64,000 nt of DNA from a virus (IMGVR_UViG_3300001687_001195:16108-80107); one strand, 5' to 3'. Positions 46,027 through 64,000 are shown, counted from the first letter of the stretch. The notes: generated from the sequence alone by a model not told the origin. Made by a program: numbers and translations.

Positions 46027-46047
46027 GTACCTCTGAGGAGGCCAACG

Positions 46048-46317: not shown

Positions 46318-46321
46318 TTTC

Positions 46322-46897: not shown

Positions 46898-46907
46898 GGA
46901 GGTTGTT

Positions 46908-47522: not shown

Positions 47523-47538
47523 CCGAGAAGGAACGATC

Positions 47539-47976: not shown

Positions 47977-47995
47977 TAGACCGTAATGGTACAAT

Positions 47996-48073
47996 CAACT
48001 CGCAGGGCACTCTGCAACTCATTCATCCCAAACCAACCTTTGTTTACCCGCGGTGTCCTGCGAGTTGTTTTAT
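47996..48073 (+). terminator. Large-loop hairpin with U-tract
   Basis: 15-bp stem CAACTCGCAGGGCAC/GTGTCCTGCGAGTTG (one G.U), 42-nt loop, then TTTTAT. Confidence 0.6.
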
Positions 48074-48083
48074 TGGTGTTGAG

Positions 48084-48530
48084 ATGTCCGAAGTAATATC
48101 GTGGGCAGAATTTCGTAAACTGCGCCAGTTAAAGGAAGGCCAATTGATCAAGTGTCCCTATTGCGGAGATATGCATATAGTTCGCGTAGCCGCAAAGGAT
48201 CCACATCTTTTGCTTTATCAGTGTGCTAACGAATTGCGTTTAGCGGGAATCTGTGGACGAAACATCGTGGAATCGAAATATGGAAAAGTGGATCTACCTG
48301 CAGACCCCAAGAAAGCGCTTGAGCAATTGATGGGCGGCGGTACGTTTCCTATTGCATTGTTGATTACAACACCGCAAGGGGTCTTTCGAGGGAACTTTGC
48401 ATATACGTGGGATACGTACTATGGGTCAACGGTGGAGCAGTTTATTGAGCATTTGGTGATGTACTTTCGCAAAGCACTGTTTGAAGTATTGAAACAGGAA
48501 CACCGATATGAAGATGAAGCTGGTAAATGA
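48084..48530 (+). CDS. Hypothetical protein with Cys motif (CPYC..C)
   Basis: 148-aa ORF. Confidence 0.55.
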   Translation: MSEVISWAEFRKLRQLKEGQLIKCPYCGDMHIVRVAAKDPHLLLYQCANELRLAGICGRNIVESKYGKVDLPADPKKALEQLMGGGTFPIALLITTPQGVFRGNFAYTWDTYYGSTVEQFIEHLVMYFRKALFEVLKQEHRYEDEAGK

Positions 48531-48810
48531 AACGGGACTTGCACGAGACAGCAGGTTACTCGTTCAGGATGAGACCGGAAAAGAGTTCGATCTTCTTAAT
48601 GCGTGTCATGTAACGCAAATCGTTGTCCGTGTAGATGAAGTTGTCGAAGCAGATTTGGAGATTGACCTTGCATCTTTGGAATTGGTTGTAGAAGGAAAGC
48701 TCGTTGGGGATCCAGTAAGTGCTACACATATCCTTGATGATCTTTCAAACAAGGGATTTTGTGTGAGAGGGGAACACTTCCGTTATGTCGGAAAAAGAAA
48801 TGCAGATTGA
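48508..48810 (+). CDS. Hypothetical protein
   Basis: Overlapping operon gene. Confidence 0.5.
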   Translation: MKMKLVNETGLARDSRLLVQDETGKEFDLLNACHVTQIVVRVDEVVEADLEIDLASLELVVEGKLVGDPVSATHILDDLSNKGFCVRGEHFRYVGKRNAD

Positions 48811-49183
48811 TGCAAACCTGTTTTACATGTTCAAAGTTGGTTTGCTTGAAAACCCGATGAGCGACTGTCTTGACGTGTACTTGATAACGGATCATGGACC
48901 CGTTCCAGGACAGACTGGACGATATGTGGTCCGCTCTATGACATGTGCTCCGGTTACGGAAGGTGCTAGTACTGCGTCCAACCTTGGGCCTTCTTTTCGG
49001 ATGGATTATAATGGTGCTCAGGAGCTTATGGAACGCCTTTGGAAGCTCGGGTACCGTCCGAAAGATTTACGGCATTCCCAAATGGTGCAACCCGCTTTGG
49101 AACTGCATTTGGACGACATGAGGCAAATCGCATTCGCCAAGTTGCACATCGTGAAACCTGAATCGACGCGAACGAGTAGATAA
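48785..49183 (+). CDS. Hypothetical protein
   Basis: Contains AQELMERLWKLGYRP..LELHLDDMR, an environmental-phage-type pattern. Confidence 0.55.
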   Translation: MSEKEMQIDANLFYMFKVGLLENPMSDCLDVYLITDHGPVPGQTGRYVVRSMTCAPVTEGASTASNLGPSFRMDYNGAQELMERLWKLGYRPKDLRHSQMVQPALELHLDDMRQIAFAKLHIVKPESTRTSR

Positions 49184-49184
49184 T

Positions 49185-49637
49185 GTGGAAAGTGAAATCT
49201 GGCGTTCAATCCCAGGCTGCAACGGCCGCTATGAAGCCAGTTCATTCGGGCGTATTCGCTCGATCATCGATACGAATCGCCCACGCATTCTGAAACCCAC
49301 GCGTTCTCTGTGGGGAACCCGCCCTAACACGGATTACTTGAAGGTTGGCTTGTACATCGAGCCCAAGAAACGCGTATGGCGGTATGTACATCGTTTGGTG
49401 TTGTTCGCCTTTGTCGGTGCTCCAGACGATCCCAAAGCGGATGCCTGCCACAATGACGGAGATTCCATGAACAACCGCATCGAGAATCTCCGGTGGGATA
49501 CTCGCTCGAACAACCTCAAAGAAGCCCATGGAGGGGAAGCGGATTGCACGGAAGCTGAAGAAGCAATGGCAGTTCGTTTGGAAGCAAGTGGGCTTCTCAA
49601 ACCAGTATTCGATTCGAGCGAAGACGTGCCATTCTGA
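49185..49637 (+). CDS. NUMOD4-HNH endonuclease (homing-endonuclease type)
   Basis: EIWRSIPG..YEASSFGRIRS (NUMOD4). YVHRLVL.AFVG, CHNDGDSMNNRIENLRW.TRSNN (HNH). Confidence 0.92.
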   Translation: MESEIWRSIPGCNGRYEASSFGRIRSIIDTNRPRILKPTRSLWGTRPNTDYLKVGLYIEPKKRVWRYVHRLVLFAFVGAPDDPKADACHNDGDSMNNRIENLRWDTRSNNLKEAHGGEADCTEAEEAMAVRLEASGLLKPVFDSSEDVPF

Positions 49638-49641
49638 GTAC

Positions 49642-49672
49642 AAAAAATGATCCAGGCAAACTCACCTGGATC
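49642..49672 (-). terminator. Terminator between convergent genes
   Basis: GATCCAGG/CCTGGATC stem with an A6 run on the left (U6 on the minus strand). Confidence 0.6.
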
Positions 49673-49682
49673 TGTATGGGAA

Positions 49683-49967
49683 TCAGATGGCAGAATCCAC
49701 TAGTTCTGTTTTGTCAACCCATAGGCTATGCATGACTTCTGCCATCTGTCTATAGGCGTTCGGATGCGCCCAATGCACGCTCCTGAGCCGTTCTTCGATC
49801 ACTTCGATGGATGGAGCTTCGCGGACGCTGGCATGCGGTAGAAGTGCTGTCAGACGTTTGGTGAGCGCTTCCAGACGTTCATCCGTGAGCATCCAGCCCG
49901 GTTGAATCACATCGCGGATAGTCTTCCGCAACTCTTCCCTGGCTACTGTATCGTCTTTGTAGTTCAT
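49683..49967 (-). CDS. Hypothetical protein
   Basis: GGAGGG upstream on the minus strand. Confidence 0.55.
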   Translation of the reverse strand: MNYKDDTVAREELRKTIRDVIQPGWMLTDERLEALTKRLTALLPHASVREAPSIEVIEERLRSVHWAHPNAYRQMAEVMHSLWVDKTELVDSAI

Positions 49968-50050
49968 GGTTCCCTCCGTAAACTGGTCTTTTTCCGTGAT
50001 AACGTATGTTGGAGGGGTTTGTCAACAAAATACTGTAAGTATGTAGAATC

Positions 50051-50350
50051 TTAAATTTCGGGCGCCTGCGAGGAGCCTTGCCCCAAATCGTCTTCCATGC
50101 TGAAAACCCTGTCTATGCCTTCCTTTAGGTAGGAATCATGTAGTTTGCATGATTGTTCGATTGCGCGCTCAAACGATTCCTGAACGCCCAGAGCAGCCAG
50201 GCTCATTTTAGAGAGGGCTTGGGCACTGGCTTCTGCTGCTTGGTGAAGGCGTCTCATGGGGCGGACTAGTTCACGCAGTACACGGTGTCGTGCTCTTCGA
50301 GAGTAGCCAGCGCGATGAAGCACAGGCATGATGTTTCTTGGTCTACCCAT
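50051..50350 (-). CDS. Hypothetical protein
   Basis: 99-aa ORF in the minus-strand block. Confidence 0.45.
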   Translation of the reverse strand: MGRPRNIMPVLHRAGYSRRARHRVLRELVRPMRRLHQAAEASAQALSKMSLAALGVQESFERAIEQSCKLHDSYLKEGIDRVFSMEDDLGQGSSQAPEI

Positions 50351-50449
50351 TGGAGCACTTAACTACTAAAATGAGAATCAGCAAAACCCATCCTGTCCCG
50401 GCAATGAGCCCGAGAAAAAGCCCGAGCCAAAAGGCGGTACTTTCTTCGC

Positions 50450-50962
50450 TCATTTCAGGTTCCCATGAGCCATCAGGCTTTTGAGGTTCTCGTAATGTTT
50501 CTTTTCGTCGATGTCAACGTGGAATTGTCTCATGAATTTAAGATAAGTGCGAAGCATGAGTGCTCCATTGCCACGTTGGAAAAGCTTGTCAATTTTTGCT
50601 TCTCGTTCACGGATTGTAACCAAGTACACGACAGCTTTCATGGCCCACTCATGCCCACGGATGCTGACGTGGTAGCGATAGAGCGCTTTCTTCTGTTCTT
50701 CGAGCGGGTTCCCAGGGAATTTAATATCTAAGCCAGCGTCCAAGCTGGCGATTTCTGGTGCATCGTCAAAATCGGGATCGTTTGTGTGGCCGCTTTCACT
50801 TGTCCACATGCAGCCAACGCCCATGCCTCCGAAACCGCGTGCATAGACGCGTTTATTGGCGCGATCTCGGGCAATGATGTAATACTTTTGACCGTACTTG
50901 ATCCCAGGCCCTTCGCGCAGGATGCGTTCAACGTTTTCTTGGATCGGATTCTTCTTGCCCAT
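50450..50962 (-). CDS. Hypothetical protein
   Basis: AGGAG upstream on the minus strand. 170 aa. Confidence 0.6.
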   Translation of the reverse strand: MGKKNPIQENVERILREGPGIKYGQKYYIIARDRANKRVYARGFGGMGVGCMWTSESGHTNDPDFDDAPEIASLDAGLDIKFPGNPLEEQKKALYRYHVSIRGHEWAMKAVVYLVTIREREAKIDKLFQRGNGALMLRTYLKFMRQFHVDIDEKKHYENLKSLMAHGNLK

Positions 50963-51007
50963 GAGTCTCCTGTAAGTTCAGCAAAAGATAAGGCGCGACG
51001 GTTGCGG

Positions 51008-51084
51008 TGGCGACCCGCACTCTTCGAGGGACTCGAACCCTCTCCAGGGGTTAAGTACTATTCCCTGGCGCATCCATACAGAGC
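51008..51084 (-). ncRNA. tRNA-like element (perfect T-arm, non-canonical remainder)
   Basis: Minus strand GAGGG-TTCGAGT-CCCTC, preceded by a CCAGGG/CCCTGG hairpin, ending GTCGCCA. No canonical D-arm or anticodon arm. Confidence 0.35.
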
Positions 51085-52134
51085 CCGTCGCGCGGAAATT
51101 TGAAGGGTGCCCCATGGCAGAGTAGTAATGCTGCTTTGCAGCGACACTTACTGCAAGCCATGCTTTCGGATCACAACACGTTTTGCGCAACGCATTCCCC
51201 GGTGTCGGTAAAGCATGCACATGGTACGCTTACATGTTTCATGGGGCATAGAATTGGCGCCCTGTGGTGGGATTGTTTACCCACAACCCGTTGGCAAGAC
51301 GAGCACCGCTCGTGGACGCAGTATGCGGTGTCTGCAGCTACCTACGTACTGCTCCCTGCCTGAATAAGAGCGTGCTTGACCATTTAGTAAGGCTACAAGC
51401 TTCACAGGGCATTGTTTCAAAGAGTTTTCCGTGGCAGGCCCTATTCCCTGCAATGGTCATTCTTAATACGCTCACTCCCCGCACAAAGAGCGGTTCATTG
51501 TGGCGGTTGCTGATTGGACGGCGCGCAACGCTCCGTATTGCCTCAGTAACAAACGCAGCAATGCATCCAAAGTAGCATGCTCCATGGCGGAAACCTGACA
51601 AGCTTTGAATCCATCCGATTGTGTGTTTGTCCGTTCGCAATCCAGCACGGAAAACTCTGTAATTTTTCAAAGAGCTAAACGATGTGGGCGCGTGTCATGC
51701 GTCATTCTTTTGTTGGCGACTCTGATCGATTTGTCAAGTTTGAAAATCCTGTAAGTTTCACGTTCAATAAGTTGCGTGAAAACCTTGTAAGTCTGTGAGG
51801 GCCTAAAGACTCCCCCGCCGCTCAGACCCCCACCCGCGAATCCGACCGTTCGGGCTCTGTTCGGTTCGGAGTCCGTTCGGGTGTTAACTGACCCCGGTAT
51901 CGTTTAACAGCCGGGTCAGTTTACAAACCGCGTTACAGATCCTTTTAACGGACCCTGAGCGGGAGCGCTATAGCCTATCGGATCCGCAAAGAGCGCGGGA
52001 TAGTTTTTTTCAAAAATCCCCCGAAACTTTTGGCCCGCGAAACCGATCTGTAATATGATAGACGGTATGGTTTGGGCGTGATTCGCCCGCGGCAAGGGCC
52101 AGCCGGTTATCGGCCCGGAAAGGAATAGGCAAAC

Positions 52135-53004
52135 ATGCCAAACGATACGGGGCGCCTAGACAACCCCGTGACCCGCGCGAAACGGGCACGGGAAAAAGGG
52201 GCGCCGGAGTACCCTACCAGTTACAAGGGCTGCGCGGCTATCTGGCAAACCCGGCGCCGCAAGCTTGCAAATAACACGTATCTGGTAGCGGCTACAGTAT
52301 GGGCGGAAGCCGAGCCGTGCCCATGGTACGGAATCCGACTCCATGAGACCGTGGTTATTCAGTATTTCCGAGACGGTTCGATCCGGCTCGACTCCGGCGG
52401 TTGGCAAACCGTTACCACGAAAGCCCGAATCAATTGCGGCCTTCCGTCCGGTTGGATAATCGGGTCAGACCGCGGGGTTTGGTATCTGTATCGCCCGGGG
52501 GAAAACGGGTATTCCGATTTCAAAAACGGTATTCCATTTGCCGATGGAATCGTGATCGGCCCGCGCGGGGGGATTTCGGGTAGCGGCCCGGACGCAAAGA
52601 AAACGCGGAAACTGCGGGAGCGAATCAACCGCTTTTGTCGGGATTACGTCGCCGCATTGTGGGCCGGTAAGGTACCCGCGCCGGGTGCGGGCGATTGCTT
52701 TTATTGCCAAATGCCGGAGCGGTGTTACATCGGCACGGTGAAGGATGGGAAGCTTGAGACGCGGCAGGGTGTACACCCGGACCATTTGCTTTCTCATATG
52801 CGGGAAAAGTATTACGTGCCGTCTCTTCTCAATCTCGCCGCGAAAGCAAATCCAGATACGATTTCCCGCGCGGCCGGGCATCAAATCGGCCATCTTTGGG
52901 GGTACCATGATGCCGGACCCTTCCCCGGTGGCGATTTCCTGCAGGAGCAAATCCGCAAGTGTTTGCGGAAGTATATGCTTCATGCGTTCGGCTTGTCCGT
53001 CTAA
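52135..53004 (+). CDS. Hypothetical early-type phage protein
   Basis: GAAAGGAATAGGC leader. KLANNTYL..IRLHET..I.LDSGGWQTVTTKARIN pattern. Confidence 0.7.
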   Translation: MPNDTGRLDNPVTRAKRAREKGAPEYPTSYKGCAAIWQTRRRKLANNTYLVAATVWAEAEPCPWYGIRLHETVVIQYFRDGSIRLDSGGWQTVTTKARINCGLPSGWIIGSDRGVWYLYRPGENGYSDFKNGIPFADGIVIGPRGGISGSGPDAKKTRKLRERINRFCRDYVAALWAGKVPAPGAGDCFYCQMPERCYIGTVKDGKLETRQGVHPDHLLSHMREKYYVPSLLNLAAKANPDTISRAAGHQIGHLWGYHDAGPFPGGDFLQEQIRKCLRKYMLHAFGLSV

Positions 53005-53021
53005 TGGAAAGGAATAGGCAA

Positions 53022-53495
53022 ATGCAAGACGATTTTTCAGCCGTTGAAAAACTCGTTCTCTCTCGATTGTGGAGCGCGGCGAAAGAAGCGAAACCGATCC
53101 GGGACGCGGTTTCCCCTGGCAATTATCACGGGGAAATGGTCGCGCGCATTCGGTACGGGGTGACGGTTTCCCAGGATTACACGCAAAAGGTAGCGGCGCG
53201 GATTCCCTGGCAACGGATTTGCGCCATTCTCTTCGGCAAGGTGAATACGGCAACGCTGGAAAGCGTAGTCCGCGCTGCAATGGATCCGGCATTTGAACCC
53301 GATAAGGAAATCGAGACGCGCGCCCGCGCTGCCGTTGAATCCATTCTCGGGACGACGAAGCAAACATGCGCCGGGCGGGTATCCCTGACCGCAACGGCCG
53401 TGCCCGTAGTCAGCGCGGCGATTGAGACCGAAGCCGAGTCGTTGCGTAACACGTTTCAGCGAAACCGCGCCGCGCTCGGAAAGCAGAGTAGATAA
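53022..53495 (+). CDS. Hypothetical protein
   Basis: GAAAGGAATAGGC leader fixes the start at ATG 53022. Confidence 0.65.
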   Translation: MQDDFSAVEKLVLSRLWSAAKEAKPIRDAVSPGNYHGEMVARIRYGVTVSQDYTQKVAARIPWQRICAILFGKVNTATLESVVRAAMDPAFEPDKEIETRARAAVESILGTTKQTCAGRVSLTATAVPVVSAAIETEAESLRNTFQRNRAALGKQSR

Positions 53496-53520
53496 GCAGG
53501 GGGGCCGCGCCCCCCTGCTT
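53494..53520. promoter_or_regulatory. Perfect 12-bp hairpin just upstream of an RBS
   Basis: AAGCAGGGGGGC-CGC-GCCCCCCTGCTT. No U-tract. Confidence 0.5.
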
Positions 53521-53538
53521 CATTGAAGGGAATAGCCC

Positions 53539-54123
53539 ATGGCGATTACTGAAACCGTATCAGACCCCGACGCGCCGGGCGCCTATTGCCGGGTGCATCC
53601 GTTGCATTTTCAGGGTATAGACCATAAGACAACCTATTTCGTCACGTATGCGCGCGGGTGCGTTGTCGCGCTGCGGGAGCGGAACTATCACGATGATTCC
53701 GATTTTTATGCGGTGTATTACGATCCGGAAACCGATACGTTCAAAGAAACGTGTTACGCAACGACGCGCGGCTGGACGTACCTAAACGGGGCGCGGGTAG
53801 ACGCATCGCCGGAGTTAGCCGAGCGCTATCGTGTATGGGAACGGAAGCAAAAGAAATTCGCCCATTGCCGAGCGGTTCGGCTGCAGATTGCCCGCATACG
53901 TGACGACGCAAGAACACACGTTAAGGGCCGAGCGCTCGCCCGGATTTTGAAAATGACCTTAGCCGAGCGCTCGGCCGTTTGTGGTTTGCTACGGGTACAG
54001 CAATTCCGCTCCACGTTTCGGCGTGATTTGCGCGCCCAATTAGAAACGTGGTTAAATGATCCGGATCCGCAGTACCTTAGCCCGTTTTCGCGTCGGCAAT
54101 GGGCGTGTTTGCTTCGTTTCTAA
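53539..54123 (+). CDS. Hypothetical protein
   Basis: GAAGGGAATAG leader. YHDDSDFYAVYYD..YATTRGW pattern. Confidence 0.7.
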   Translation: MAITETVSDPDAPGAYCRVHPLHFQGIDHKTTYFVTYARGCVVALRERNYHDDSDFYAVYYDPETDTFKETCYATTRGWTYLNGARVDASPELAERYRVWERKQKKFAHCRAVRLQIARIRDDARTHVKGRALARILKMTLAERSAVCGLLRVQQFRSTFRRDLRAQLETWLNDPDPQYLSPFSRRQWACLLRF

Positions 54124-54142
54124 CGGAAAGGAATAGGAAATC

Positions 54143-54463
54143 ATGCAAGATGGAATCGACCTTAGCAGCGCTATTTTCGGTAGTTTCCCCCGGGTTGACT
54201 TGAAACCCGGGCAGTACTTCGTCGGCATTGCGCCGCATTCGGAAGTATGCATGCACATGCGTTGCGCCGGGGAAATGATGCTAATTAAAATGCTTTCCCG
54301 CAATGCGGCGCAATTGTTCCGGTTTGATCCGATGCGCGGAAATTATCAGCCGTTTTCGGCTGCGGTCACGACCGGAGAAGCCGGTATCTATACGAACGCG
54401 GGGGAATGCTATGCATACGGGCTGCGCGTCGTTCTGCCGGGCGAAAGGGGTACCGAAGGATGA
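54143..54463 (+). CDS. Hypothetical protein
   Basis: GAAAGGAATAGG leader. Confidence 0.6.
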   Translation: MQDGIDLSSAIFGSFPRVDLKPGQYFVGIAPHSEVCMHMRCAGEMMLIKMLSRNAAQLFRFDPMRGNYQPFSAAVTTGEAGIYTNAGECYAYGLRVVLPGERGTEG

Positions 54464-54921
54464 TGGCTACCTTTGCGGATTTCGTTCCCCTGACCGCATC
54501 GCAAGCCCGAGAATTGCAAGCCCGATTAGACCGCTATATAACATGGGTTCGGGAGCGATTCGGGAACGGTTGGGCATGCTATGATCCGGACGACGTACCC
54601 GAAAACTGCAGACTTACGAACGAAGAGCGGAGTAAACTTGAAATTCACGATTGGGTGAATGATCCCCCGCGCCGATATTTCGCTTATGTGTTTCACCCGG
54701 ACGATCTGAAAAAGCGTTACATCGGTACATGGACAGGGGATAAGCTAGCGCGAATTTCAATTCTCGGGGGCCGGGTACGGGATAATTTCGGCGGGTGTCG
54801 GCGCTACATTAGTGCGTACGGTACGAACGGGGTGCGCTATTGGGGTTGGTACTATGAATCCGCCGGGGATTACTGCCGTCTAACCGCGTTCAAAGGCCAG
54901 AAAACAGACGGAAAGGAATAG
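54460..54921 (+). CDS. Hypothetical protein
   Basis: ATGA overlap. IGTWTGDKL..YWG.YY..GDYC pattern. Confidence 0.65.
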   Translation: MMATFADFVPLTASQARELQARLDRYITWVRERFGNGWACYDPDDVPENCRLTNEERSKLEIHDWVNDPPRRYFAYVFHPDDLKKRYIGTWTGDKLARISILGGRVRDNFGGCRRYISAYGTNGVRYWGWYYESAGDYCRLTAFKGQKTDGKE

Positions 54922-54927
54922 GCAAAC

Positions 54928-55167
54928 ATGAACACGAAAACAGAACGGACGCGTTTCTGGTCTTCCCCTGATACGACAACGTGTATTCAGTTTCGTACCG
55001 ACACGGATCCGAAAGTGTGGATCCATACAAATCTCGGATGGGTACCGATCGGTAATACTCCAGACGATGCGGGCGCAGCCGAAGCTTTTGCCGTAGATGT
55101 AGCGGCAGGGTACAAGCTTGAAGAAGCTTCCGAAGACACCGCGCGTTACATGGCCGGATGGGAATAG
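54928..55167 (+). CDS. Hypothetical protein
   Basis: GAAAGGAATAGGCAAACATG leader, identical to that of 52135. Confidence 0.65.
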   Translation: MNTKTERTRFWSSPDTTTCIQFRTDTDPKVWIHTNLGWVPIGNTPDDAGAAEAFAVDVAAGYKLEEASEDTARYMAGWE

Positions 55168-55172
55168 GTTTC

Positions 55173-55838
55173 ATGGCCCGTAAACCAAAAGACAAGCCCA
55201 AGGTACCCGTGGCTATCCATGTAGATTATGGGTATGGATCCAAAACGCTGAACACGTTTCAGACGCGCGAGAAGATGTACACGCAACGGAAAGAGAATTT
55301 CCGGATCCGTGCGCGATACGGCATGCACTACATCAAAGGAAATCGCTTGCCGTATTTCTCTCTCACGGCCGAGATTGACGTACTAGTGAACGGACGATGG
55401 AGGGATCACGCGGGCGGACAAATGCCCGATGAAATCGAGAAGCATTTCCCCGATTTGTACCACCGTCTCGCACGCTGGCATTTGACCGATCAAGACGGCT
55501 GCCCGATGCACTACATTGCGAACGGGAAATTTTGGGCGGACCTTATCGGGGGAAGACGCCCCTGGGGGGAAGGGGATACGGACCCGCTCGGCGCATTGCA
55601 AAGAACGATTGTTTACGGGGTGCTAAGTGAAGACTGGCAAACCCGATCCCTGATTCACTTGTGCAAAGACGCCGAAGACTTTGAGCGCTGGCTACAAAAC
55701 CGAATCCCCGGTTTGCGCGAAAAATTCCTGCAGGATATGAAGGGCTGCAACGTGACCCTGATTCCAGACGAAGTTTTGCGCAAACATTACCCGGAAGTCT
55801 TTGCAAAAGCTGTCCCCGAGATTCAGGGCCAACCGTAA
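55173..55838 (+). CDS. Hypothetical protein
   Basis: GGGAATAGG leader. PYFSLTAEI, RWHLTDQDGCPMHYIANG pattern. Confidence 0.7.
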   Translation: MARKPKDKPKVPVAIHVDYGYGSKTLNTFQTREKMYTQRKENFRIRARYGMHYIKGNRLPYFSLTAEIDVLVNGRWRDHAGGQMPDEIEKHFPDLYHRLARWHLTDQDGCPMHYIANGKFWADLIGGRRPWGEGDTDPLGALQRTIVYGVLSEDWQTRSLIHLCKDAEDFERWLQNRIPGLREKFLQDMKGCNVTLIPDEVLRKHYPEVFAKAVPEIQGQP

Positions 55839-55856
55839 GGAAAGGAATAAGAAAAC

Positions 55857-56153
55857 ATGGGTATTGTCCATTTGTGGTTTCAGGCGCCCGATAGCGGGCG
55901 TCAAACGCGTTGCGGAGCGCCCCTTGGCCCGAGCGCGGAAACTACGTGTCTTGCAAGGGAAGTTACATGCCCGGTTTGTCAGGAAATGATGCGCAAAGAC
56001 AATACGCTATGGATCATAGTAACGGGAAACATCGTTCGCGGGTTTAACGCATGGGGGCCATTTAACCATGTACTCGATGCGCGCCGCGCCCGCGAAAAAA
56101 TGGGGAAAGGCGGGTGCGTCATTAAACTATGGAACCCAAACGACGCGGGGTAA
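55857..56153 (+). CDS. Hypothetical protein with Cys/His motif
   Basis: GAAAGGAATAAG leader. VH..TRCG..VTCPVC. Confidence 0.6.
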   Translation: MGIVHLWFQAPDSGRQTRCGAPLGPSAETTCLAREVTCPVCQEMMRKDNTLWIIVTGNIVRGFNAWGPFNHVLDARRAREKMGKGGCVIKLWNPNDAG

Positions 56154-56230
56154 CGGATTAAACATGTATGCTCGGCGCGCAAACCGTATAACACGCGCGC
56201 CGGGTAACTCCGGAAAGGAATAGAAAAACC

Positions 56231-56509
56231 ATGCTAGTACAATGTGAAGAATGCAAACGCAAGGTTTCCGCTCCTGATTTGCAGGATGGGTTTTGCCCGT
56301 TTTGCCGACGCGAGCGGCGGCAGTATGTAACGCTATCCCGAGCGGACGTAGGGCAGCAATTTTTGCGGGCGTTCGGGCGTGTTTGGCCGGTCTCGGGATT
56401 CCTGGGGAGCATACAGTTTCGAGACGTTGGAAAACGGGTCTACTATATCGGGGGTGTTTTGCAAGCCGAAAGCGATAGCCAATATCAAGAACGTTTGGAC
56501 GAGATTTGA
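56231..56509 (+). CDS. Hypothetical zinc-ribbon protein
   Basis: GAAAGGAATAG leader. CEEC..CPFC. Confidence 0.6.
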   Translation: MLVQCEECKRKVSAPDLQDGFCPFCRRERRQYVTLSRADVGQQFLRAFGRVWPVSGFLGSIQFRDVGKRVYYIGGVLQAESDSQYQERLDEI

Positions 56510-56760
56510 TGGGGTACCGTAAACATGAAATGTGCAGGGTATGCAAAAGTATCTTTGTGGCTACCCGTCCGTCTGAGCGCGTTTGCCGGGCGTGCAAACA
56601 GGCTGCCGCGAATCGCGCTGCCGTAGCCGATGCATTGCGGCGCGAAAAGAAAACCAGCGTATCTATAACGTGTCGTGTTTGCGGGAAAAGCTTTCGCGCT
56701 CCCCCGCATTACACCCGTTGTCGTGAATGCTGGAAAAAGACTGCCGGAGAGAAACTGTAA
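56506..56760 (+). CDS. Double zinc-ribbon protein
   Basis: CRVC..CRAC and CRVC..CREC. Confidence 0.6.
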   Translation: MMGYRKHEMCRVCKSIFVATRPSERVCRACKQAAANRAAVADALRREKKTSVSITCRVCGKSFRAPPHYTRCRECWKKTAGEKL

Positions 56761-57170
56761 TGATGGATACATCCGACGAGTACGTTGCAGACGTATTGTT
56801 GCGGGAAATGGGCGCGGAAAGGGGAATCGAGTATGCGCGAAAGCTTGCCGGTTATCCTGGCCCGTTGTCAGCGCAGTATGCGCGTGTGGCCGATCTAATG
56901 ACCGCGCAAGTGATCCCGCGTCTTTACAAAGATGCTGCGGAGATCGGTAACAACCGCGCCGCATTATTGCGTCGTCTCAAAGACGCCCGCAGCGTTTTGA
57001 AAACTGAATACCGTGATCGGTTCAAAACATACATTTATGATTTCGACCGGAAATGTATGATCGGGGCCGGTTACATACTGCAATGGGTAAACGATGGGCG
57101 GACAAACCGGGGAACCGTTTACTGCGCTATCCTGGAAAAAAACTTCTTTGCAGAAGGGAATAGTGGTTAA
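56760..57170 (+). CDS. Hypothetical protein
   Basis: TAATG overlap. Confidence 0.55.
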   Translation: MMDTSDEYVADVLLREMGAERGIEYARKLAGYPGPLSAQYARVADLMTAQVIPRLYKDAAEIGNNRAALLRRLKDARSVLKTEYRDRFKTYIYDFDRKCMIGAGYILQWVNDGRTNRGTVYCAILEKNFFAEGNSG

Positions 57171-57350
57171 ATGGAAAACATGTACTGGATTGAAGAGCGT
57201 GCAATCGATCGGCTGCGCAAGGTGGCCCGACGCCTTTACAAAGAAGACCGTTTGACCGGGGATCAAATGCGGGATCTGGCGCAAACGATCGATTCCGCGC
57301 TGTCGGACGCCTTTAAGGTTGAGATACAAAAAGACGATACCCGCCCCTAA
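57171..57350 (+). CDS. Hypothetical 59-aa protein (absent from the ORF track)
   Basis: GAAGGGAATAG leader. MENMYWIEERAIDRLRKVARRLYKEDRLTGDQMRDLAQTIDSALSDAFKVEIQKDDTRP. Confidence 0.6.
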   Translation: MENMYWIEERAIDRLRKVARRLYKEDRLTGDQMRDLAQTIDSALSDAFKVEIQKDDTRP

Positions 57351-57642
57351 ACCCCTCCGGTCTACTCTACGGGGCGCGGTTTAGCCACGATGCATAAGAC
57401 CCCGCGCCCCTCAGAATCCCCTCTAGCGCCCCCCTACACCCCTAGAGCGGAATCTATAGGATGGGATATAGTAGTGACCCCATAGACAACCCCATACACT
57501 ACCCCCGTAGGCAAACCAAACCCCATAACAAACCCTACCCCATCACCCCCCTATACAGATAAGACGAATCTACACCCTACCCCAACGTACCAGCGGGGAG
57601 CGCAGCACATAACGCTCCCCCCTAAACTGAGGGTGAAGACCC

Positions 57643-57671
57643 TTGACTAGTGGAGTCTGTTTAGCTACTCT
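57643..57671 (+). promoter_or_regulatory. Sigma70-type promoter
   Basis: TTGACT (57643-57648), 17-nt spacer, TACTCT (57666-57671). Small palindrome GACT-AGTGG-AGTC overlaps the -35 box. Confidence 0.6.
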
Positions 57672-57678
57672 TCAGGCT

Positions 57679-57734
57679 GCTTATTCCTTTTCGGCCCGCG
57701 TCTCGGGGCGCAACGTCTCGGGGCGCGGGTTTTT
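57679..57734 (+). ncRNA. Candidate ~56-nt antisense sRNA against the early-gene leader motif
   Basis: 5' seed GCUUAUUCCUUUUCGG, then a GC/GU-rich terminator hairpin (CCCGCG..CGCGGG) and U5. Promoter directly upstream. No ORF. Confidence 0.6.
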
Positions 57735-57954
57735 GCATGTGGAGGGAAACTGCAGCGTTTTTCGCGGGGAATTGTGTAAGTATGTTGAACTGCTTAAACC
57801 CGTGTAAGTATGCGACACCCTTAATAGGAGGTTTTCGGCCCGAGACCCCCTACCCTGGATCCGGCGCGCTACCGTTTGGTAACGTTAACCAGATGTTAGG
57901 GGGTGTTAACGCGTTAAGGGTAGCGTTAAACGAGTTAACTGTCGTTTTGTAGCG

Positions 57955-58080
57955 GGCCGCGGGCGGGTTTGCGGGTGCGGGCGGGTGCGGGCGGGTTTGA
58001 CGGGTTTGGGCGGGTGCGGGCCAGCGCGGGGGAATAGTGGCCCGGGTGCGGGCGGGTGCGGGTTCGGGCGGGTGCGGGTT
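57955..58080 (+). repeat. GCGGGT/GGGC tandem G-tract repeats
   Basis: More than a dozen GGG tracts separated by 1-7 nt. Confidence 0.75.
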
Positions 58081-58275
58081 CAATCGTTTTCCATAGGCGC
58101 TATCCTGAAAAGCCTATTCCGACCGAACGGGGGGACCGTTCCCCCGCGCTGGCAAATAGTATATCGGCGCGGGCCGCTGGCAAGATACTTTTTTCTACTT
58201 TTCCGGGGAAAGTATGGACAAAACCGGCCCGGTTGGCGACTATACAGATAGAAACGCGTTTCTAAGGAATAGGCT

Positions 58276-58572
58276 ATGGTATCGGCGCCGATACCAAACG
58301 GATTAACGCCCGCGGGGGAATACTGGCCCGGTTCCCCCGCGGGCGTTCGTATGTACGGGCCAAACCGGAAAGGGATAGGCGCTATGGTAGTGTGGGTTCG
58401 GTTGAATAGCGGCCCGCGTTTGTGCAACGTGCTGCGGAAATACTGGTACCGAACGCCCGCGGGTTCGCGGGTTCCCCGGTTGATAGTGGCCGATATTGCT
58501 ACGGGGGAAAAGCATAGGGTACGTTTGGCCCGTATTCTTCCCCGTAGATTCCCCGGGTTCCGCCTTATCTAA
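58276..58572 (+). CDS. Hypothetical protein (second in-frame start at 58384)
   Basis: AAGGAATAGGC leader at 58264. GAAAGGGATAGGC leader before ATG 58384. Confidence 0.5.
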   Translation: MVSAPIPNGLTPAGEYWPGSPAGVRMYGPNRKGIGAMVVWVRLNSGPRLCNVLRKYWYRTPAGSRVPRLIVADIATGEKHRVRLARILPRRFPGFRLI

Positions 58573-58590
58573 AAACGAGAGGGAATAGCT

Positions 58591-58779
58591 ATGTTTTTAA
58601 GGCTTATGAAATCGTTGGCCCGCGTTGAAAACAGGATTCGGCAGTTAAAGGCGGAACGCCCACGCACCCGGACAGTAACGGGCCAAATTGATAGCCTAGT
58701 AACCCGCCGTTCTGAATTGCGGGCGGAATTGCGTCCGTACTTTGCGCTGATTGAGCGGGCCAGCGCGGAAAGGGATTAG
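58591..58779 (+). CDS. Small coiled-coil protein
   Basis: GAGAGGGAATAG leader. Confidence 0.6.
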   Translation: MFLRLMKSLARVENRIRQLKAERPRTRTVTGQIDSLVTRRSELRAELRPYFALIERASAERD

Positions 58780-58784
58780 ATAAT

Positions 58785-59153
58785 ATGGGAATTGTCCAGA
58801 TTAGCCCGCGCCTAACTCCGGGCGTTTGTATCGGGGGAACGTGGGTTAGCGTAACGCCCGCAAACCGTGCCGATCGGCACGGGCGTCCGTTTTGGCGCTG
58901 GTACATAGATCTGTCAAACGGGAAAAGCTTTACGGATTCTGACTTGAGCGGTTGGGGGAACGCCCGCGCTATGCTGGAATCCCTTTTGGCGTTTCTAGGC
59001 GCTTGCGCTGAATCCCTTAGTTACGGGAACGGGGAAGGGGAAAACGCAAGCCTATTTCCGCGGCCCGTTGGGGAATGGGCGCTACAGTATTCCGATGAAA
59101 TCGGGATATTACAGATTGAGTTAGCCGACGAAATCGAACGGGAAAGGGATTAG
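58785..59153 (+). CDS. Hypothetical protein
   Basis: GAAAGGGATTAG leader. DLSGW..MLESLLAFLGACAES..LFP..V.EWA pattern. Confidence 0.65.
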   Translation: MGIVQISPRLTPGVCIGGTWVSVTPANRADRHGRPFWRWYIDLSNGKSFTDSDLSGWGNARAMLESLLAFLGACAESLSYGNGEGENASLFPRPVGEWALQYSDEIGILQIELADEIERERD

Positions 59154-59156
59154 GCT

Positions 59157-59552
59157 ATGGTATGGTCGTGGTCACATACTCCGGAAGCCTACCAAAACGC
59201 CCGCGATAACTTATCGCGCTTGCCCGCGGTTGAATTAATCACGATACGGGCGGAATGGTACGCGTTAACCGATCGGGAAAGAGATTGTAACGCGTTTAGC
59301 GCGGGCCGCTATCATCGTGCATGCCGTTATTTGCAGAAACGCTATCGGCGCGCGATAGGCGCTAACGGGAACCCACGTTTGCAAACCGTTTCGGAATTTT
59401 GCGAAACGCTATCGAACGAAATATGGGAAAAAGCCGAGAATTTGGCTAATTGCACAAACGGCGGGTTTAGCGCTTGGGTTTGCCCGTACGGTTGCGGGCC
59501 GCATCTAGTAAGTTTTTCGCGGCCCGATGAAAAAGACTATGAAAGGGAATAG
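59157..59552 (+). CDS. Hypothetical protein
   Basis: GAAAGGGATTAGGC leader. WSWSHTPEAY..TNGG..AWVCPYGC. Confidence 0.65.
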   Translation: MVWSWSHTPEAYQNARDNLSRLPAVELITIRAEWYALTDRERDCNAFSAGRYHRACRYLQKRYRRAIGANGNPRLQTVSEFCETLSNEIWEKAENLANCTNGGFSAWVCPYGCGPHLVSFSRPDEKDYERE

Positions 59553-59553
59553 T

Positions 59554-59970
59554 ATGCTAAGCGTGATAACGGCAATTGCACGGGCGTTCGGAGCGCTCAG
59601 AGAATGCAAGAAAACCGGAAACGATATTTGGGCGGAAAAGCATACTGAGCGGATTCGGGAACTAGTAGAAATCTACTTTCCGTCCGGTTCCGGTTTCGAT
59701 AGCGGATGCGGGTTTGACTTTGAAAAATCCCGCGAAAATAAACTGGTTTTCTATACCAGTTTTCATCATATGAATAACGCGGGTTTTTATGACGGTTGGT
59801 CGGATCATAGCGTTATCGTGACGCCTAGCCTATCCCTTGGGTTTGACGTAAGGGTAACGGGCCGCAACCGCAACGATATTAAGGTTTATATCGCGGAACT
59901 GTTTGCGGCTGCGCTGGCAAGCGATACCGAAACCGAAACCCGTATCGTGGGGGAAGGGGAAAAAGCCTAA
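59554..59970 (+). CDS. Hypothetical protein
   Basis: GAAAGGGAATAG leader. PSGSGFDSG..FHHMN..GFYDGW..H.V.VTPSL pattern. Confidence 0.7.
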   Translation: MLSVITAIARAFGALRECKKTGNDIWAEKHTERIRELVEIYFPSGSGFDSGCGFDFEKSRENKLVFYTSFHHMNNAGFYDGWSDHSVIVTPSLSLGFDVRVTGRNRNDIKVYIAELFAAALASDTETETRIVGEGEKA

Positions 59971-60338
59971 TGGCCCGGAAATCTGATATTCAGGAATTGC
60001 GAGAACATTGTGCATGTATGGGTTTGACGTTGCACATATGGGCGCCCGGAGATAAACATGGGTGCCGCTATCGTTTCTTTACTGATAACGCAACGTGCTA
60101 CGATAGCGGGCGCCCGGTCGGCACGGTGTACGGGCGGAAAAATGCATGGGCGTTCGTTCACGCTTTTGCCCATGGGTACGGGCACGCCGATACAAGGATA
60201 GCGGAACCCATGGGGGAAACGTTGCGGGCTATTCTGGCTTGCGCAACGGGGAAGCTTGAAACGGGTTCCCCCGCGCTATCGTCAATTGCAGAATCAGCGC
60301 GACTAGCGCTAGCCCGCGCTGGCAAGCCTACGGAATAG
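59970..60338 (+). CDS. Hypothetical protein
   Basis: TAATG overlap. IWAPGD..RYRFF. Confidence 0.6.
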   Translation: MARKSDIQELREHCACMGLTLHIWAPGDKHGCRYRFFTDNATCYDSGRPVGTVYGRKNAWAFVHAFAHGYGHADTRIAEPMGETLRAILACATGKLETGSPALSSIAESARLALARAGKPTE

Positions 60339-60339
60339 G

Positions 60340-60975
60340 CGCCTATCCTGAACGCCCGGGCCAGAAACCCGGGCGTTACTCTGTACGGGCCAGCGCGGGC
60401 CGCTATCAATCGCACCCGCACCCGCGGCCCGTGAACCCTTGCCAGCGCAAACCGGGCGTTATAGCGGCCCGGAACCCTTGCCAGCGCGGAAACCCGCCCG
60501 CACCCGCGGCCCGCTACCAAACCCGCCCGGAACCTTTAGCCCGCGAAACCCTGAACCCGCCCGGGGGAATAGCGCTATTTAGCCCGAAATCGGGCCAGCG
60601 CGGCCCGTTAACGCCCGGTTTGGTTTCCCTTAGTGGTATAAGTCAAACCCGAAACCCGCCCGTTAAAACGCATCTAATGCCGTTTTAGCGCTATACGTTG
60701 CAAGTTATTACCTTAACTGCGCTTGTATCGTCAAAAAGTTAGTGTTTTGTTAGCAAACCCGCCCGAAACGCGAAACCCGCCCGGAACCCGATAGGCGAAT
60801 AGCCCGCGCCCATAGCGGCCCGCGCCCGAACCCGCGCCGATACTGGCCCGCGCTGGCAAGGGAAACCCGCCCGGAACCGTAGCCCGAACCCGCGGGCCAG
60901 CGCACCCGCGCCCATGGGGGAAACCGGGCGGAACCGGGCGGAACCCGCGGGCGTTAAACCGGGCGTTAATCCGGA
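60340..60975. repeat. Non-coding GC-rich repeat tract (AACCCGC, GCCAGCGC motifs)
   Basis: Dense ACCCGC repeats, the mirror of the 57955-58080 tract. No credible protein. Confidence 0.7.
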
Positions 60976-61068
60976 CGTATCGATACATCCCGACACACGG
61001 AATCCGCCAGCGGCACAGAAAATGCTATGCAGCAAGCGAAAATCTAGCGCGCGTCATTTTCACAAACT

Positions 61069-61115
61069 GCACAGGGAAGCTTAGCACAGGGAAGAATAGC
61101 ACAGGAAAAAGTAGC
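61069..61115. repeat. 15-bp-period direct repeats (GCACAGGGAAG)
   Basis: Units start at 61069, 61084 and 61099, with a partial unit at 61114. Confidence 0.75.
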
Positions 61116-61389
61116 AAACTGCCCTGGTTATCATTGCTATGTTTCATGCAACCTATGGCCCGTCTCATGCGCAGTATGGATAGGGTATGTTGTGGTTAGC
61201 TCGGGGGCGGCGCCGCAGTCTGGCCTAGTTGTTTTGGAGGGGAAGTAATGATGGTGGGGGCTTGGGTCTGCCCCCTGCGTCTGGGGGTGAAATGGGGCGT
61301 GTGGGTTGCAAAAAGTGTGCGCAAGTGAAAACAATAAGTGGTCAGGCAAGTATGAGAGGCGAACAAGTTACGAAAGGATGGTGTAGGCC

Positions 61390-61809
61390 ATGCAGGATGT
61401 GAAGTGTGTCGCTTGCGGTAAAGGCAATTTGGTTGGGGCGATTGCTTTTAGGGATGGGTATCGTTGCGCGGATTGTGTGATCAAGTGCTTTTGGGATGCG
61501 CTGCGGGAAAAGCAACGACTCATGGAGGAAATCGAGCAGGCGAAAAGAGAGATCCGGTACCGGGATATGCTGATCGCATGGAGTCCGGGTGGAGATCGGT
61601 TTGCACCTTTGGTTGCTGAGATTGAGAAGTTGCGAAAAGTGCTGGAACCGTTTGCCATTTGTGGAGCGTGGTACGAGGAACACGGGCCGCGGTGTCAACC
61701 GCCCGAAGAAACCGGACTCTGGATGGTGTCTGGTCCGAAGGGAGCCAAAGAGCCTAAGATCACGGTGCGGCATGTGCTGGATGCGAAAACCGCATTGGAG
61801 GAGAGGTAA
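61390..61809 (+). CDS. Hypothetical protein with N-terminal Cys motif
   Basis: CVAC..CADC followed by a coiled coil. Confidence 0.55.
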   Translation: MQDVKCVACGKGNLVGAIAFRDGYRCADCVIKCFWDALREKQRLMEEIEQAKREIRYRDMLIAWSPGGDRFAPLVAEIEKLRKVLEPFAICGAWYEEHGPRCQPPEETGLWMVSGPKGAKEPKITVRHVLDAKTALEER

Positions 61810-61812
61810 GGC

Positions 61813-61995
61813 GTGGCGTACACGGAACACCATTTCCAGGATGTAAAACACGTTGGAGTGGCGTGGGATAAGGATACGAAAAGGGTTTGGGTATGTTTGA
61901 ATGGAGTTGCGCTGCTCCGCGCGAAAGTACAAGGCGACAGTACATTGATGATCGAGTTTTATGATCCTGACTTTTTGCGATCGCAGGAGGAATAA
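61813..61995 (+). CDS. Hypothetical protein
   Basis: GAGG RBS, GTG start. Confidence 0.55.
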   Translation: MAYTEHHFQDVKHVGVAWDKDTKRVWVCLNGVALLRAKVQGDSTLMIEFYDPDFLRSQEE

Positions 61996-61998
61996 GGC

Positions 61999-62229
61999 AT
62001 GCCCAATGGCGGCGGCGGTTTGATGGGTAGGCATCTTCGAGAAATCGAAGTGTTGGAAGATCGGATAAAACATCTCACTGAAGAGAACACAAAACTCGTG
62101 GTAGAGCGGAATCGATTGAGGGCATTTGTAGAAAAACTTGCCGGACCATGTTGGTATGGTTCGAGGGAAGAGGCTACTGAAAGGTGCTGTTGGGCTTGTA
62201 GAGCCCGCAAGGCGCTGGAAGGGAAGTAA
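61999..62229 (+). CDS. Coiled-coil protein with C-terminal Cys cluster
   Basis: GGAGG RBS. Confidence 0.55.
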   Translation: MPNGGGGLMGRHLREIEVLEDRIKHLTEENTKLVVERNRLRAFVEKLAGPCWYGSREEATERCCWACRARKALEGK

Positions 62230-62235
62230 AGCGCG

Positions 62236-62472
62236 ATGTGCGAATACGGAGACACGGTGCCGGTTCTTGTTTGGATAGCGGCTGACTTGGCTTGTGAGGG
62301 TCATGAAAAGTGGAAAGTTGCTAGAATCGATCGATGCATTGCGCCTATTGTATCTGCACTGAGTACAGCCGGGATCCGTATGCGGGGTTCTTGTTGTGGG
62401 CATGGAAGGGGAGATGGAAGCATCGAGTTGCAGGACGGACGTACTCTGATTATCCGTAAAGTAAGTTCATGA
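62236..62472 (+). CDS. Hypothetical phage protein
   Basis: IDRCIAPIVSAL..GI....SCCGHG pattern, recalled as common in phages. Confidence 0.65.
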   Translation: MCEYGDTVPVLVWIAADLACEGHEKWKVARIDRCIAPIVSALSTAGIRMRGSCCGHGRGDGSIELQDGRTLIIRKVSS

Positions 62473-62494
62473 AACCGGAACGAGCGAAAGAACT

Positions 62495-62728
62495 ATGCGT
62501 GACAGTAATAAACCGATAACAGTGGAAGTTGTGCTACGAAAAGCTTTTCCATATGAAGGCTCAGACCCCGTGATTGGACGATTGGAGTTAGGAGATTCTC
62601 TTGCGTTTACACCATATGGCGGGTTCATGGGGGTCGTATCGGAAGAGTTTCGCGGCTTGTTACCATATGCGGATGAGCACTGTGTAATCATTAAGATGAC
62701 TGTGTATCCTGCAAAGTGGGAAAGGTAA
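62495..62728 (+). CDS. Hypothetical protein
   Basis: 77-aa ORF in the run. Confidence 0.5.
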   Translation: MRDSNKPITVEVVLRKAFPYEGSDPVIGRLELGDSLAFTPYGGFMGVVSEEFRGLLPYADEHCVIIKMTVYPAKWER

Positions 62729-62732
62729 AGAG

Positions 62733-63836
62733 ATGATTGAGCAGAGACTACAAGAAATTTTTGAAACAGTATACGGTACTGGTGCGGTGACTAACACAGA
62801 AGGTTTGATTATAGAATATATTGATGAACTTCGTGAGACTGTCAATGCACTTTGTGAAAGTTTCAAGCCGTTAGAAGAATGGTATGATCGAACCAGAAAA
62901 CTTTCCGGATTGCCGCCCATTATCAAAGAGCATGTAATCAGAACGAAAGAAAAGCGGCGCGTTGGGTATAACCCACCACCGTTGGATACTTCTCCACCAA
63001 AGCGTGTTCCGTCTCCTCCGGTGCCGTCGAGACGTTTGAAGCCCACGTATGTCGAGCCGGTACGATGCCCAAAATGTAATGGTAAGGGATTTATGCGAGA
63101 AAACGATGGAGCGGGCAACTTCTTTGATGTCGTGTGTGATTGTGTTGAGACGACCGAGCCCGCCCGGCTCACGGCGCTGGAGGAGCGGAAGACTCTTCGT
63201 GCGGCGGCATTTGGTGTCCGACTCAAGGCGGTGGAGGAGTGGATGAATAGGTGCAGAGAACTTGCCGGACTACGCTTGGCACCCGAGCCCGTCGAGTCCG
63301 ACCCAGAGTCCGTGCTGATGGACATGGAGCAGGCTGCCGAGGACGCGGCGGCACGAGCAAGGGATGGGGCCGAGCCCGCGCCGGACAAGGCCGATCACGG
63401 CACGGAGGGTCCGGAGGGCAGGACCAACGAGGAGATCCCCGTGTGCCGCTATACCGCGCCGGACAAGCCGGACTTCAGCGAGATTGTCGAGAAGCATCAC
63501 AACGGGCCGTGGAGAGCATACGCTTTCTCGGGATTAGTTGGGGAGGCAATCCGCCGCGCCTGCGAGGAGGCCGCAGAGCAGGCCACGGCGGAGTTGACGC
63601 GCAAGGGCAAGGAACTCTGTGAGGCGCACGGCAACCTGTTGATGGAAGCACATGAACTCAAGGCCGACTTTGCCCGGCTCAAGGCCGCCGCCGTGCCGAG
63701 CGTGGAGGAGATCGGCGCGTGGTATCGCGACTGGTTTAAGTCCGGCGCGCCTATGCGGAAACATATGCGCGCCTGGCTCAAGCGCCGCGTGGAAGAGGCC
63801 ATGGCAGGGAAGGCGGGAGGTGAGGAGAAATCATGA
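62733..63836 (+). CDS. Mosaic hypothetical protein with CPKCNGKG..CDC zinc motif
   Basis: 367 aa. Composition shifts to high GC near 63165. Confidence 0.55.
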   Translation: MIEQRLQEIFETVYGTGAVTNTEGLIIEYIDELRETVNALCESFKPLEEWYDRTRKLSGLPPIIKEHVIRTKEKRRVGYNPPPLDTSPPKRVPSPPVPSRRLKPTYVEPVRCPKCNGKGFMRENDGAGNFFDVVCDCVETTEPARLTALEERKTLRAAAFGVRLKAVEEWMNRCRELAGLRLAPEPVESDPESVLMDMEQAAEDAAARARDGAEPAPDKADHGTEGPEGRTNEEIPVCRYTAPDKPDFSEIVEKHHNGPWRAYAFSGLVGEAIRRACEEAAEQATAELTRKGKELCEAHGNLLMEAHELKADFARLKAAAVPSVEEIGAWYRDWFKSGAPMRKHMRAWLKRRVEEAMAGKAGGEEKS

Positions 63837-64000
63837 CCAAGCACAAGACCCACTACGCGAAGACCCGCAACGAATGGACCGCGTGCCGGCGGGCTGCATG
63901 GCTCGTGTGGCGGCATACGGCCCGGAAACATCGCGTGACCTGCGGGGCGTACCAACGCCATCTCGTCAATGCGGGAGAGGAGTCCGGCGGTGGGCAATGA
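63833..64000 (+). CDS. Small basic protein (55 aa)
   Basis: ATGA overlap. MTKHKTHYAK..TACRRAAW..HRVTC. Stop at the window end. Confidence 0.45.
   Translation: MTKHKTHYAKTRNEWTACRRAAWLVWRHTARKHRVTCGAYQRHLVNAGEESGGGQ

Follow-up and report, generated by a model that had tools for sequence, protein, structure and literature searches.

A 15-nucleotide start-associated tag in a probably early gene block of an uncultured phage, with two reverse copies as candidate antisense RNA elements

We analysed a stretch of 64,000 nucleotides (nt) of viral DNA (IMGVR_UViG_3300001687_001195:16108-80107, hereafter the window), which forms the right 64 kb of an 80-kb IMG/VR virus record that is about 62% complete and carries nearly all of its genes on the plus strand. 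Within it lies a block of 18 called genes, arranged as two sub-operons (52135-57350 and 58276-60338), in which 14 genes are preceded by copies of one 15-nt tag, cGGAAAGGAATAGGc, that includes the ribosome-binding site. The tag occurs 15 times, always on the plus strand, and is confined to positions 52116-59554, which lie apart from the capsid and tail genes. The four untagged genes (starts at 54460, 56509, 56760 and 59970) each overlap the stop codon of the preceding gene, so their translation is expected to depend on a tagged gene. Searches of the 18 block proteins against Pfam and PHROG gave no functional assignment, and several proteins had weak, zinc-ribbon-like matches. The block genes are probably early, the labels "early" and "late" being drawn from position, small gene size and one weak similarity; the first block protein weakly resembles genes that CbK-like phages of Caulobacter carry in their terminal repeats. 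The nearest capsids are those of a Microcystis phage (32%) and of T5-like phages (23-26%), and the backbone is unrelated to that of actinophages.

Alignment of the copies on their GGAATAG core gave the 15-mer consensus CGGAAAGGAATAGGC. Searching for the 12-mer with at most two mismatches returned 20 matches, compared with 5.5 +/- 2.3 in shuffled sequences. We further scored the record with a weight matrix built from the 15 sites, all of which reached 13-22 bits, while the best other plus-strand site in the 80 kb scored 12.5 bits; this clean separation is partly circular given that the matrix was trained on the same sites, whereas the shuffle test is not. About 1.1 sites of at least 13 bits are expected by chance per strand. 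Information content peaked at GG-AATAG, outside the Shine-Dalgarno (SD) part of the tag. No block protein matched another by blastp below E = 0.01, and thus the tagged genes are not paralogues and the conservation of the tag is not a by-product of gene duplication, which we ruled out as the source of the repeats.

All 15 copies are present within 3 nt of where a first-pass annotation of the sequence had placed them and, as it had claimed, all 15 precede an ATG, which begins 1-7 nt after the TAG or TAA of the tag. The source gene caller had independently placed starts at fourteen of these ATGs; the fifteenth, at 58384 behind the site at 58366, lies in frame inside the gene called at 58276. These two tagged ATGs, with products of 98 and 62 amino acids, share a reading frame and may represent a dual-start gene. 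Orientation inside the block is 15:0 forward, and most copies sit in junctions of 20 nt or less. At 5 of the 15 sites the upstream gene uses the TAG of the tag as its own stop codon; at the others it ends shortly before the tag, or no gene lies upstream. Sub-families of sites also share their spacer and even first codons: the copies at 52116 and 54909 form a 22-nt repeat, and 58276, 58384 and 59157 have ATGGTA in common. The SD element, GAAAGG(A/G), occupies the 5' half of the tag, and GGAG is found in no tagged leader. The conserved tail of 16S rRNA is CACCUCCUUUC, to which AAUAGG is not complementary. Consistent with the first-pass annotation, GAAAGGA (plus a G.U pair) is the only part of the tag able to pair with this textbook 3' end, while AATAGG, the best-conserved part, does not match the textbook anti-SD; the record contains no host 16S. 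The same annotation described the motif as unused by late genes, with ordinary GGAG/AGGAGG before structural genes, and in line with this the leaders of 89 genes outside the block contain GGAG (29), GAGG (19), GGAGG (12), GAAAGG (3) and ATAG (1). The canonical GGAG/GGAGG-type SDs of these leaders imply that the host has an ordinary anti-SD. Loose look-alikes of the SD-TAG-ATG arrangement occur outside the block at three positions (46309, 61373 and 61989).

Scanning the minus strand with the matrix revealed two sites of about 18 bits (45956-45970 and 57679-57693), as strong as real sites, where the chance expectation for sites of at least 18 bits is 0.02 per strand. Both reverse copies are located where the gene caller has no gene, and neither has a credible minus-strand start (at 45956 only a 10-codon frame follows a GVG-type start, and at 57679 there is none). 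Since all neighbouring genes lie on the plus strand, transcription through these sites would yield the complement of the tag, and we refer to the sites as anti-tags (Table 1). Anti-tag 1 is the predicted single-stranded 5' part of a candidate small RNA of about 56 nt with an 18-bp hairpin and U5 at its 3' end, and this unit lies within a 925-nt non-coding spacer separating the two sub-operons. Anti-tag 2 is predicted in the loop of a hairpin that begins in the stop codon of gene 45716-45943, and as an RNA it would be a 3'-end fragment of an mRNA. Rfam covariance models gave no match at the gathering threshold in the whole window, nor at E <= 1 in 45000-64000, and a tRNA search found none. Two weaker reverse matches just upstream of the block, of a kind expected about three times per strand by chance and with unremarkable folds, are of uncertain status.

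Table 1. Coordinates of the tags, anti-tags and associated features in the window
Feature	Position	Strand	Details
Tag 1, exact consensus CGGAAAGGAATAGGC	52116-52130	+	22.3 bits; ATG 52135, 289-amino-acid gene, first of block
Tag 2	53005-53019	+	21.1 bits; ATG 53022
Tag 3 (GAAGGGAATAGC)	53523-53537	+	17.1 bits; ATG 53539; GC hairpin 53497-53519 upstream
Tag 4	54124-54138	+	21.3 bits; ATG 54143
Tag 5	54909-54923	+	22.3 bits; ATG 54928; TAG is stop of upstream gene
Tag 6 (GGATGGGAATAGG)	55155-55169	+	17.4 bits; ATG 55173; TAG is upstream stop
Tag 7, TAA replacing TAG	55838-55852	+	15.3 bits; ATG 55857
Tag 8	56211-56225	+	19.4 bits; ATG 56231; in 77-nt gap with GC hairpin
Tag 9	57151-57165	+	14.5 bits; ATG 57171
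Tag 10	58260-58274	+	13.3 bits; ATG 58276, first gene of second sub-operon
Tag 11	58366-58380	+	19.0 bits; ATG 58384 in frame within gene 58276, possible second start
Tag 12	58576-58590	+	14.8 bits; ATG 58591
Tag 13 (GGGATTAG variant)	58767-58781	+	13.1 bits; ATG 58785; TAG is upstream stop
Tag 14 (GGGATTAGG variant)	59141-59155	+	16.4 bits; ATG 59157; TAG is upstream stop
Tag 15	59540-59554	+	16.8 bits; ATG 59554; TAG is upstream stop
Anti-tag 1, GCTTATTCCTTTTCG	57679-57693	+	18.0 bits on minus strand; 15 pairs (2 G.U) with consensus tag
18-bp hairpin and U5	57693-57734	+	Directly 3' of anti-tag 1; fold -32.5 kcal/mol, z -4.25
Promoter-like TTGACT-17-TACTCT	57643-57671	+	Read from the sequence; proposed in the first-pass annotation for the small RNA
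Anti-tag 2 (GCCTATTCCTTTC...)	45956-45970	+	18.1 bits on minus strand; predicted unpaired in loop of hairpin 45940-46026
Terminator-like hairpin, 11+4 bp stem, large loop, U-run	45940-46026	+	Fold -27.7 kcal/mol, z -5.6
Weak reverse match	51056-51070	reverse	12.3 bits; in 1.1-kb non-coding stretch just upstream of block
Weak reverse match	51439-51453	reverse	11.5 bits; in the same stretch
ATGA stop/start overlap	54460-54463	+	Untagged gene coupled to tagged gene 54143
TGATG stop/start overlap	56507-56511	+	Untagged gene
TAATG stop/start overlap	56758-56762	+	Untagged gene
TAATG stop/start overlap	59968-59972	+	Untagged gene

We then compared the tags with the 57679 element and found 12-15 possible pairs out of 15 at every site, in contiguous runs of 8-15. 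Predicted duplexes with the tagged leaders ranged from -11 to -26 kcal/mol, compared with a mean of -7.4 and a minimum of -16.4 kcal/mol for the 89 other leaders. An RNA partner of the tag is supported because two full-strength reverse copies, where 0.02 are expected, stand in gene-free, antisense-like RNA contexts.

A motif of this kind has been described in Cluster K mycobacteriophages, whose start-associated sequence (SAS) is a 13-bp asymmetric element, GGGATAGGAGCCC, present in 11-19 copies per genome in the non-structural arm only. It lies 3-7 bp ahead of starts that are mostly ATG, is more conserved than 16S pairing explains and sometimes contains the upstream stop codon (Pope et al. 2011, PMC3203893). 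A single reverse SAS was noted in K1 mycobacteriophages and left unexplained, and the SAS literature leaves open whether the factor is a protein or an RNA (PMC3203893); more recent papers still describe the role of SAS as ill-defined or needing experiments (PMC11373665, 2024; PMC12699233, 2025). Like the Cluster K SAS, the tag is an asymmetric motif repeated at the ribosome-binding site of unrelated gene families, with rare reverse copies away from starts, and the two share a GG(G/A)ATAGG core; the sequence otherwise differs and fails GGGATAGGAGCCC at up to two mismatches. The SD lies in the 5' half here (GAAAGGA) and in the 3' half there (AGGAG), and junctions are mostly 20 nt or less here, compared with gaps over 50 bp in Cluster K. 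About half of the Cluster K sites have an upstream extended SAS (ESAS; 17-bp inverted repeats plus a promoter), whereas no such repeat family is seen here, and the present phage differs further in its two anti-tags, one in a terminator loop and one at the 5' end of a candidate small RNA, and in its unrelated backbone. Cluster EF Microbacterium phages carry an SAS-like motif, GGGAAAGGACCCC, in about ten copies at ribosome-binding-site positions, over-conserved and of unknown function (PMC7302621). It shares the GGAAAGGA core with the tag but differs in the 3' half (CCCC there, ATAGGC here), and in EF phages it goes with an ESAS-like GTAGAG element upstream, within intergenic gaps; the present phage shows no such element. 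We class the tag as an analogue of the SAS class and not a member of its sequence family, because the K consensus failed, ESAS is absent and the junctions are mostly tight. The recurrence of the phenomenon, with another consensus, in an uncultured phage unrelated to these implies that SAS are not peculiar to one phage cluster.

We further focused on the reverse SAS of the K1 phage Anaya, which lies in the 385-bp gp96-gp97 gap and is predicted in a 10-nt hairpin loop. The hairpin region is present in 142 Cluster K records, and in an alignment of 12 diverse Cluster K phages the hairpin was kept, with a few compensatory pairs, downstream of a strongly conserved promoter-like block (TTGACG/TTGGCG...TAGACT). 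The loop is an anti-SAS (CCTCCTATCCCC) only in K1-type phages (Anaya, Adephagia, Validus, Bella96, Peanam and Amelie), so that an antisense partner cannot be the general or sole reason for SAS but can be a regulatory layer. On the predicted folds, the display of an anti-tag in a loop is thus a feature that recurs in an independent SAS system. Cluster K phages share this conserved non-coding unit (in Anaya, L014:34700-35000), in which the promoter-like block is followed by three hairpins; in K1 phages the loop of the third complements the SAS, and some records annotate a hypothetical protein across the unit.

Antisense RNAs that act at phage ribosome-binding sites include P22 sar, the P1/P7 c4 RNA on icd-ant and the P4 CI RNA. 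These resemble the arrangement proposed here in that a small RNA faces a ribosome-binding site, downstream genes are coupled (icd-ant) and the antisense sequence is displayed in a loop; they differ in that they hit one or two sites of one transcript, whereas here one seed would face about 15 initiation regions of unrelated genes. We propose that the tagged genes may be jointly repressed at translation by antisense RNA, with a probability of about 0.5. The SD element GAAAGGA is embedded in a 15-nt SAS-type leader and, under this proposal, the remainder of that leader would act as a common address. One partner would be the small RNA encoded in the block (57679-57734), whose single-stranded 5' seed precedes a terminator, and the other would be the loop of the terminator hairpin closing an upstream operon (45940-46026). 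Pairing of an anti-tag would cover the SD and block 30S binding, so that the whole block would be shut off together, and the four untagged genes would follow through translational coupling. That a single RNA seed, present twice, is directed at a private 15-nt leader shared by about 15 initiation sites and so switches off a class of unrelated genes is a fuller claim that we advance tentatively, at somewhat less than even odds. Production of both RNAs, their pairing with the leaders, repression as the effect and its timing are parts of the model that we infer.

Several observations weigh against antisense repression. The tagged leaders are no more accessible than the others (unpaired probability 0.47 vs 0.44). 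The 45956 element may be the loop of a mere operon terminator. The first-pass annotation had proposed that A-to-G changes facing U are tolerated by G.U pairing, and 21 of 43 substitutions do keep pairing with the 57679 element, compared with 11.3 expected, although the purine richness of the SD and a 1-nt shift in the alignment of three sites confound this excess. Its broader suggestion, that the extension is a regulatory tag for an RNA or an RNA-binding protein, draws strength from the conservation of AATAGG, which is unpaired with textbook 16S, from the non-paralogous genes and from the two reverse copies; it is weakened by the promoter-like sequence TTGACT-17-TACTCT, which matches the -10 consensus at 3 of 6 positions and was not listed by a consensus promoter scan. 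Other Cluster K subclusters with SAS have CU-rich, non-complementary loops or lack the loop sequence. Finally, our searches found no close relatives suitable for following covariation of tag and anti-tag. Megablast of the block against phage records gave no match, and the 17-mer leader had six single matches in IMG/VR, about the chance number by a rough estimate. Capsid relatives were found only on contigs of 9-10 kb and none in bacterial genomes, homologues of two block proteins reached 46-57% identity at best, and all 10 block proteins looked up were singleton clusters. Other contigs with block genes are 99.99-100% identical to the window and represent the same phage, and three distant relatives with the 289-amino-acid gene showed no comparable shared leader.

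Alternatively, the tag may be an RNA operator for a phage or host protein, either a RegA-like repressor or a RegB-like endoribonuclease, the reverse copies being unrelated to its function; we consider this unlikely, though it has good precedent in T4. There, RegA binds the initiation regions of many early genes and RegB cuts an 11-nt SD-plus-A-rich motif, GGAGRAYARAA, in early leaders, so that class-wide post-transcriptional shut-off of early genes through a long nuclease motif is known (PMC3014915), and in both RegB and RegA systems a gene class is controlled through the sequence of the initiation region, with proteins as the agents. An RNA-binding protein could also hide among the block proteins, several of which have weak zinc-ribbon-like matches. 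However, unlike RegB targets, the tagged leaders have no GGAG; no RegA or RegB homologue is in the record (PF10715 is absent), nor did the 80-kb record, at about 62% completeness, yield any RegB, RegA, CsrA or S21 family match; and the two full-strength reverse copies would be left unexplained.

A reading without any trans factor, in which the tag is simply a good initiation cassette (SD, TAG stop and A-rich spacer) copied by junction recombination and retained for the strong, uniform translation that it gives, and the reverse copies are relics or coincidence, appears to us doubtful and a little less credible than a protein operator. The use of TAG as a real upstream stop at 5 of 15 sites, the look-alikes elsewhere and the copy-and-paste appearance of the sub-families that share spacer and first codons would all fit such a cassette. 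Yet the non-SD positions are the most informative, although many A-rich spacers would serve translation equally, the leaders are no more accessible, and the two 18-bit reverse copies (0.02 expected) fall in structured, gene-free RNA contexts.

The tag could also be an asymmetric double-stranded DNA site for a phage repressor that would stop transcription across the block, comparable to the 13-bp stoperators of Cluster A mycobacteriophages, which would account for copies on both strands. The stoperators of L5 are placed intergenically with an orientation bias, which counts in favour of a DNA site. Pope 2011 contrasts SAS explicitly with stoperators (PMC3203893). The 15:0 orientation, the SD within the motif and the fixed 1-7 nt spacing to the ATG all indicate a role at the RNA level, neither a repressor nor an integrase was recognised, and a DNA site gives no reason for reverse copies at unpaired RNA positions, all of which make this reading improbable. 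It is highly improbable that the whole tag pairs with the rRNA of an unusual host or with a phage-modified or specialised ribosome: GAAAGGA fits the canonical tail, but the 89 other leaders are canonical, AAUAGG is not complementary to the textbook tail and the record contains no S21 gene. We also considered a promoter for a T7-type RNA polymerase, given the likeness of AATAGG to TATAGG, and found no PF00940 match, a weak negative because control genomes also gave none; such a promoter is unlikely because transcripts starting within 7 nt of the ATG would have no SD.

Several other features were observed around the block. The sequence TGTAAGTATG occurs exactly three times on the plus strand (50034-50043, 57775-57784 and 57803-57812), where about 0.1 occurrences are expected for a given 10-mer in 128 kb, and a one-mismatch copy lies at 51786. 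Two of the exact sites head the second sub-operon, the third lies in the gap between two minus-strand genes, and the one-mismatch copy is upstream of the block; TGTAAGTATG probably serves the phage as a promoter or operator. Upstream of the second sub-operon, at 57950-58090, stand arrays of GCGGGTGCGGGCGGG-type repeats whose inverted counterparts lie downstream at 60400-60915, with arms of up to 56 nt that are 73-100% complementary and bracket about 2.4 kb; they may represent iterons or an origin, a segment that is invertible or mobile, or a region resembling the T5 injection stop. Right after the first sub-operon, the tract 57400-57620 (42% C, 15% G) contains CCCCATA-like repeats and resembles a Rho-utilisation (rut) region. 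A cluster of GTTAAC/GTTAA (five in about 55 nt, 57884-57940) stands ahead of the second sub-operon and one GTTAAC (51883) ahead of the first, as possible operator repeats.

Between three minus-strand genes and the block, 1.1 kb (50980-52115) has no credible gene and holds a long-range stem (50993-51001/51084-51092), a minus-strand tRNA-like T-arm at about 51020-51040 and the two weak reverse tags; ARAGORN and Rfam gave no match in this region. A 23-nt inverted repeat (53435-53457/53746-53768, 96% complementary, arms 288 nt apart) runs from the end of gene 53022 to inside gene 53539 and could form a long-range RNA structure. The GC content of the block and the sequence after it (the last 12 kb) is 54-58%, compared with 45-47.5% in the first 66 kb of the record. 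The step lies at about 49600-52100 of the window, and the right arm may differ in origin from the remaining phage; an assembly chimera was ruled out as its cause, as two independent Logan contigs cross 48-58 kb.

SAS have been catalogued in actinobacteriophages since 2011, and the block described here adds a new example together with a concrete candidate partner, namely two antisense copies at the very positions in which regulatory RNAs present their seeds. If antisense repression is true, it would provide the first mechanistic explanation of start-associated sequences. If the pairing is real, a whole gene class would be placed under one RNA switch through a common leader, which would offer the phage a compact means of shutting off or silencing early functions.

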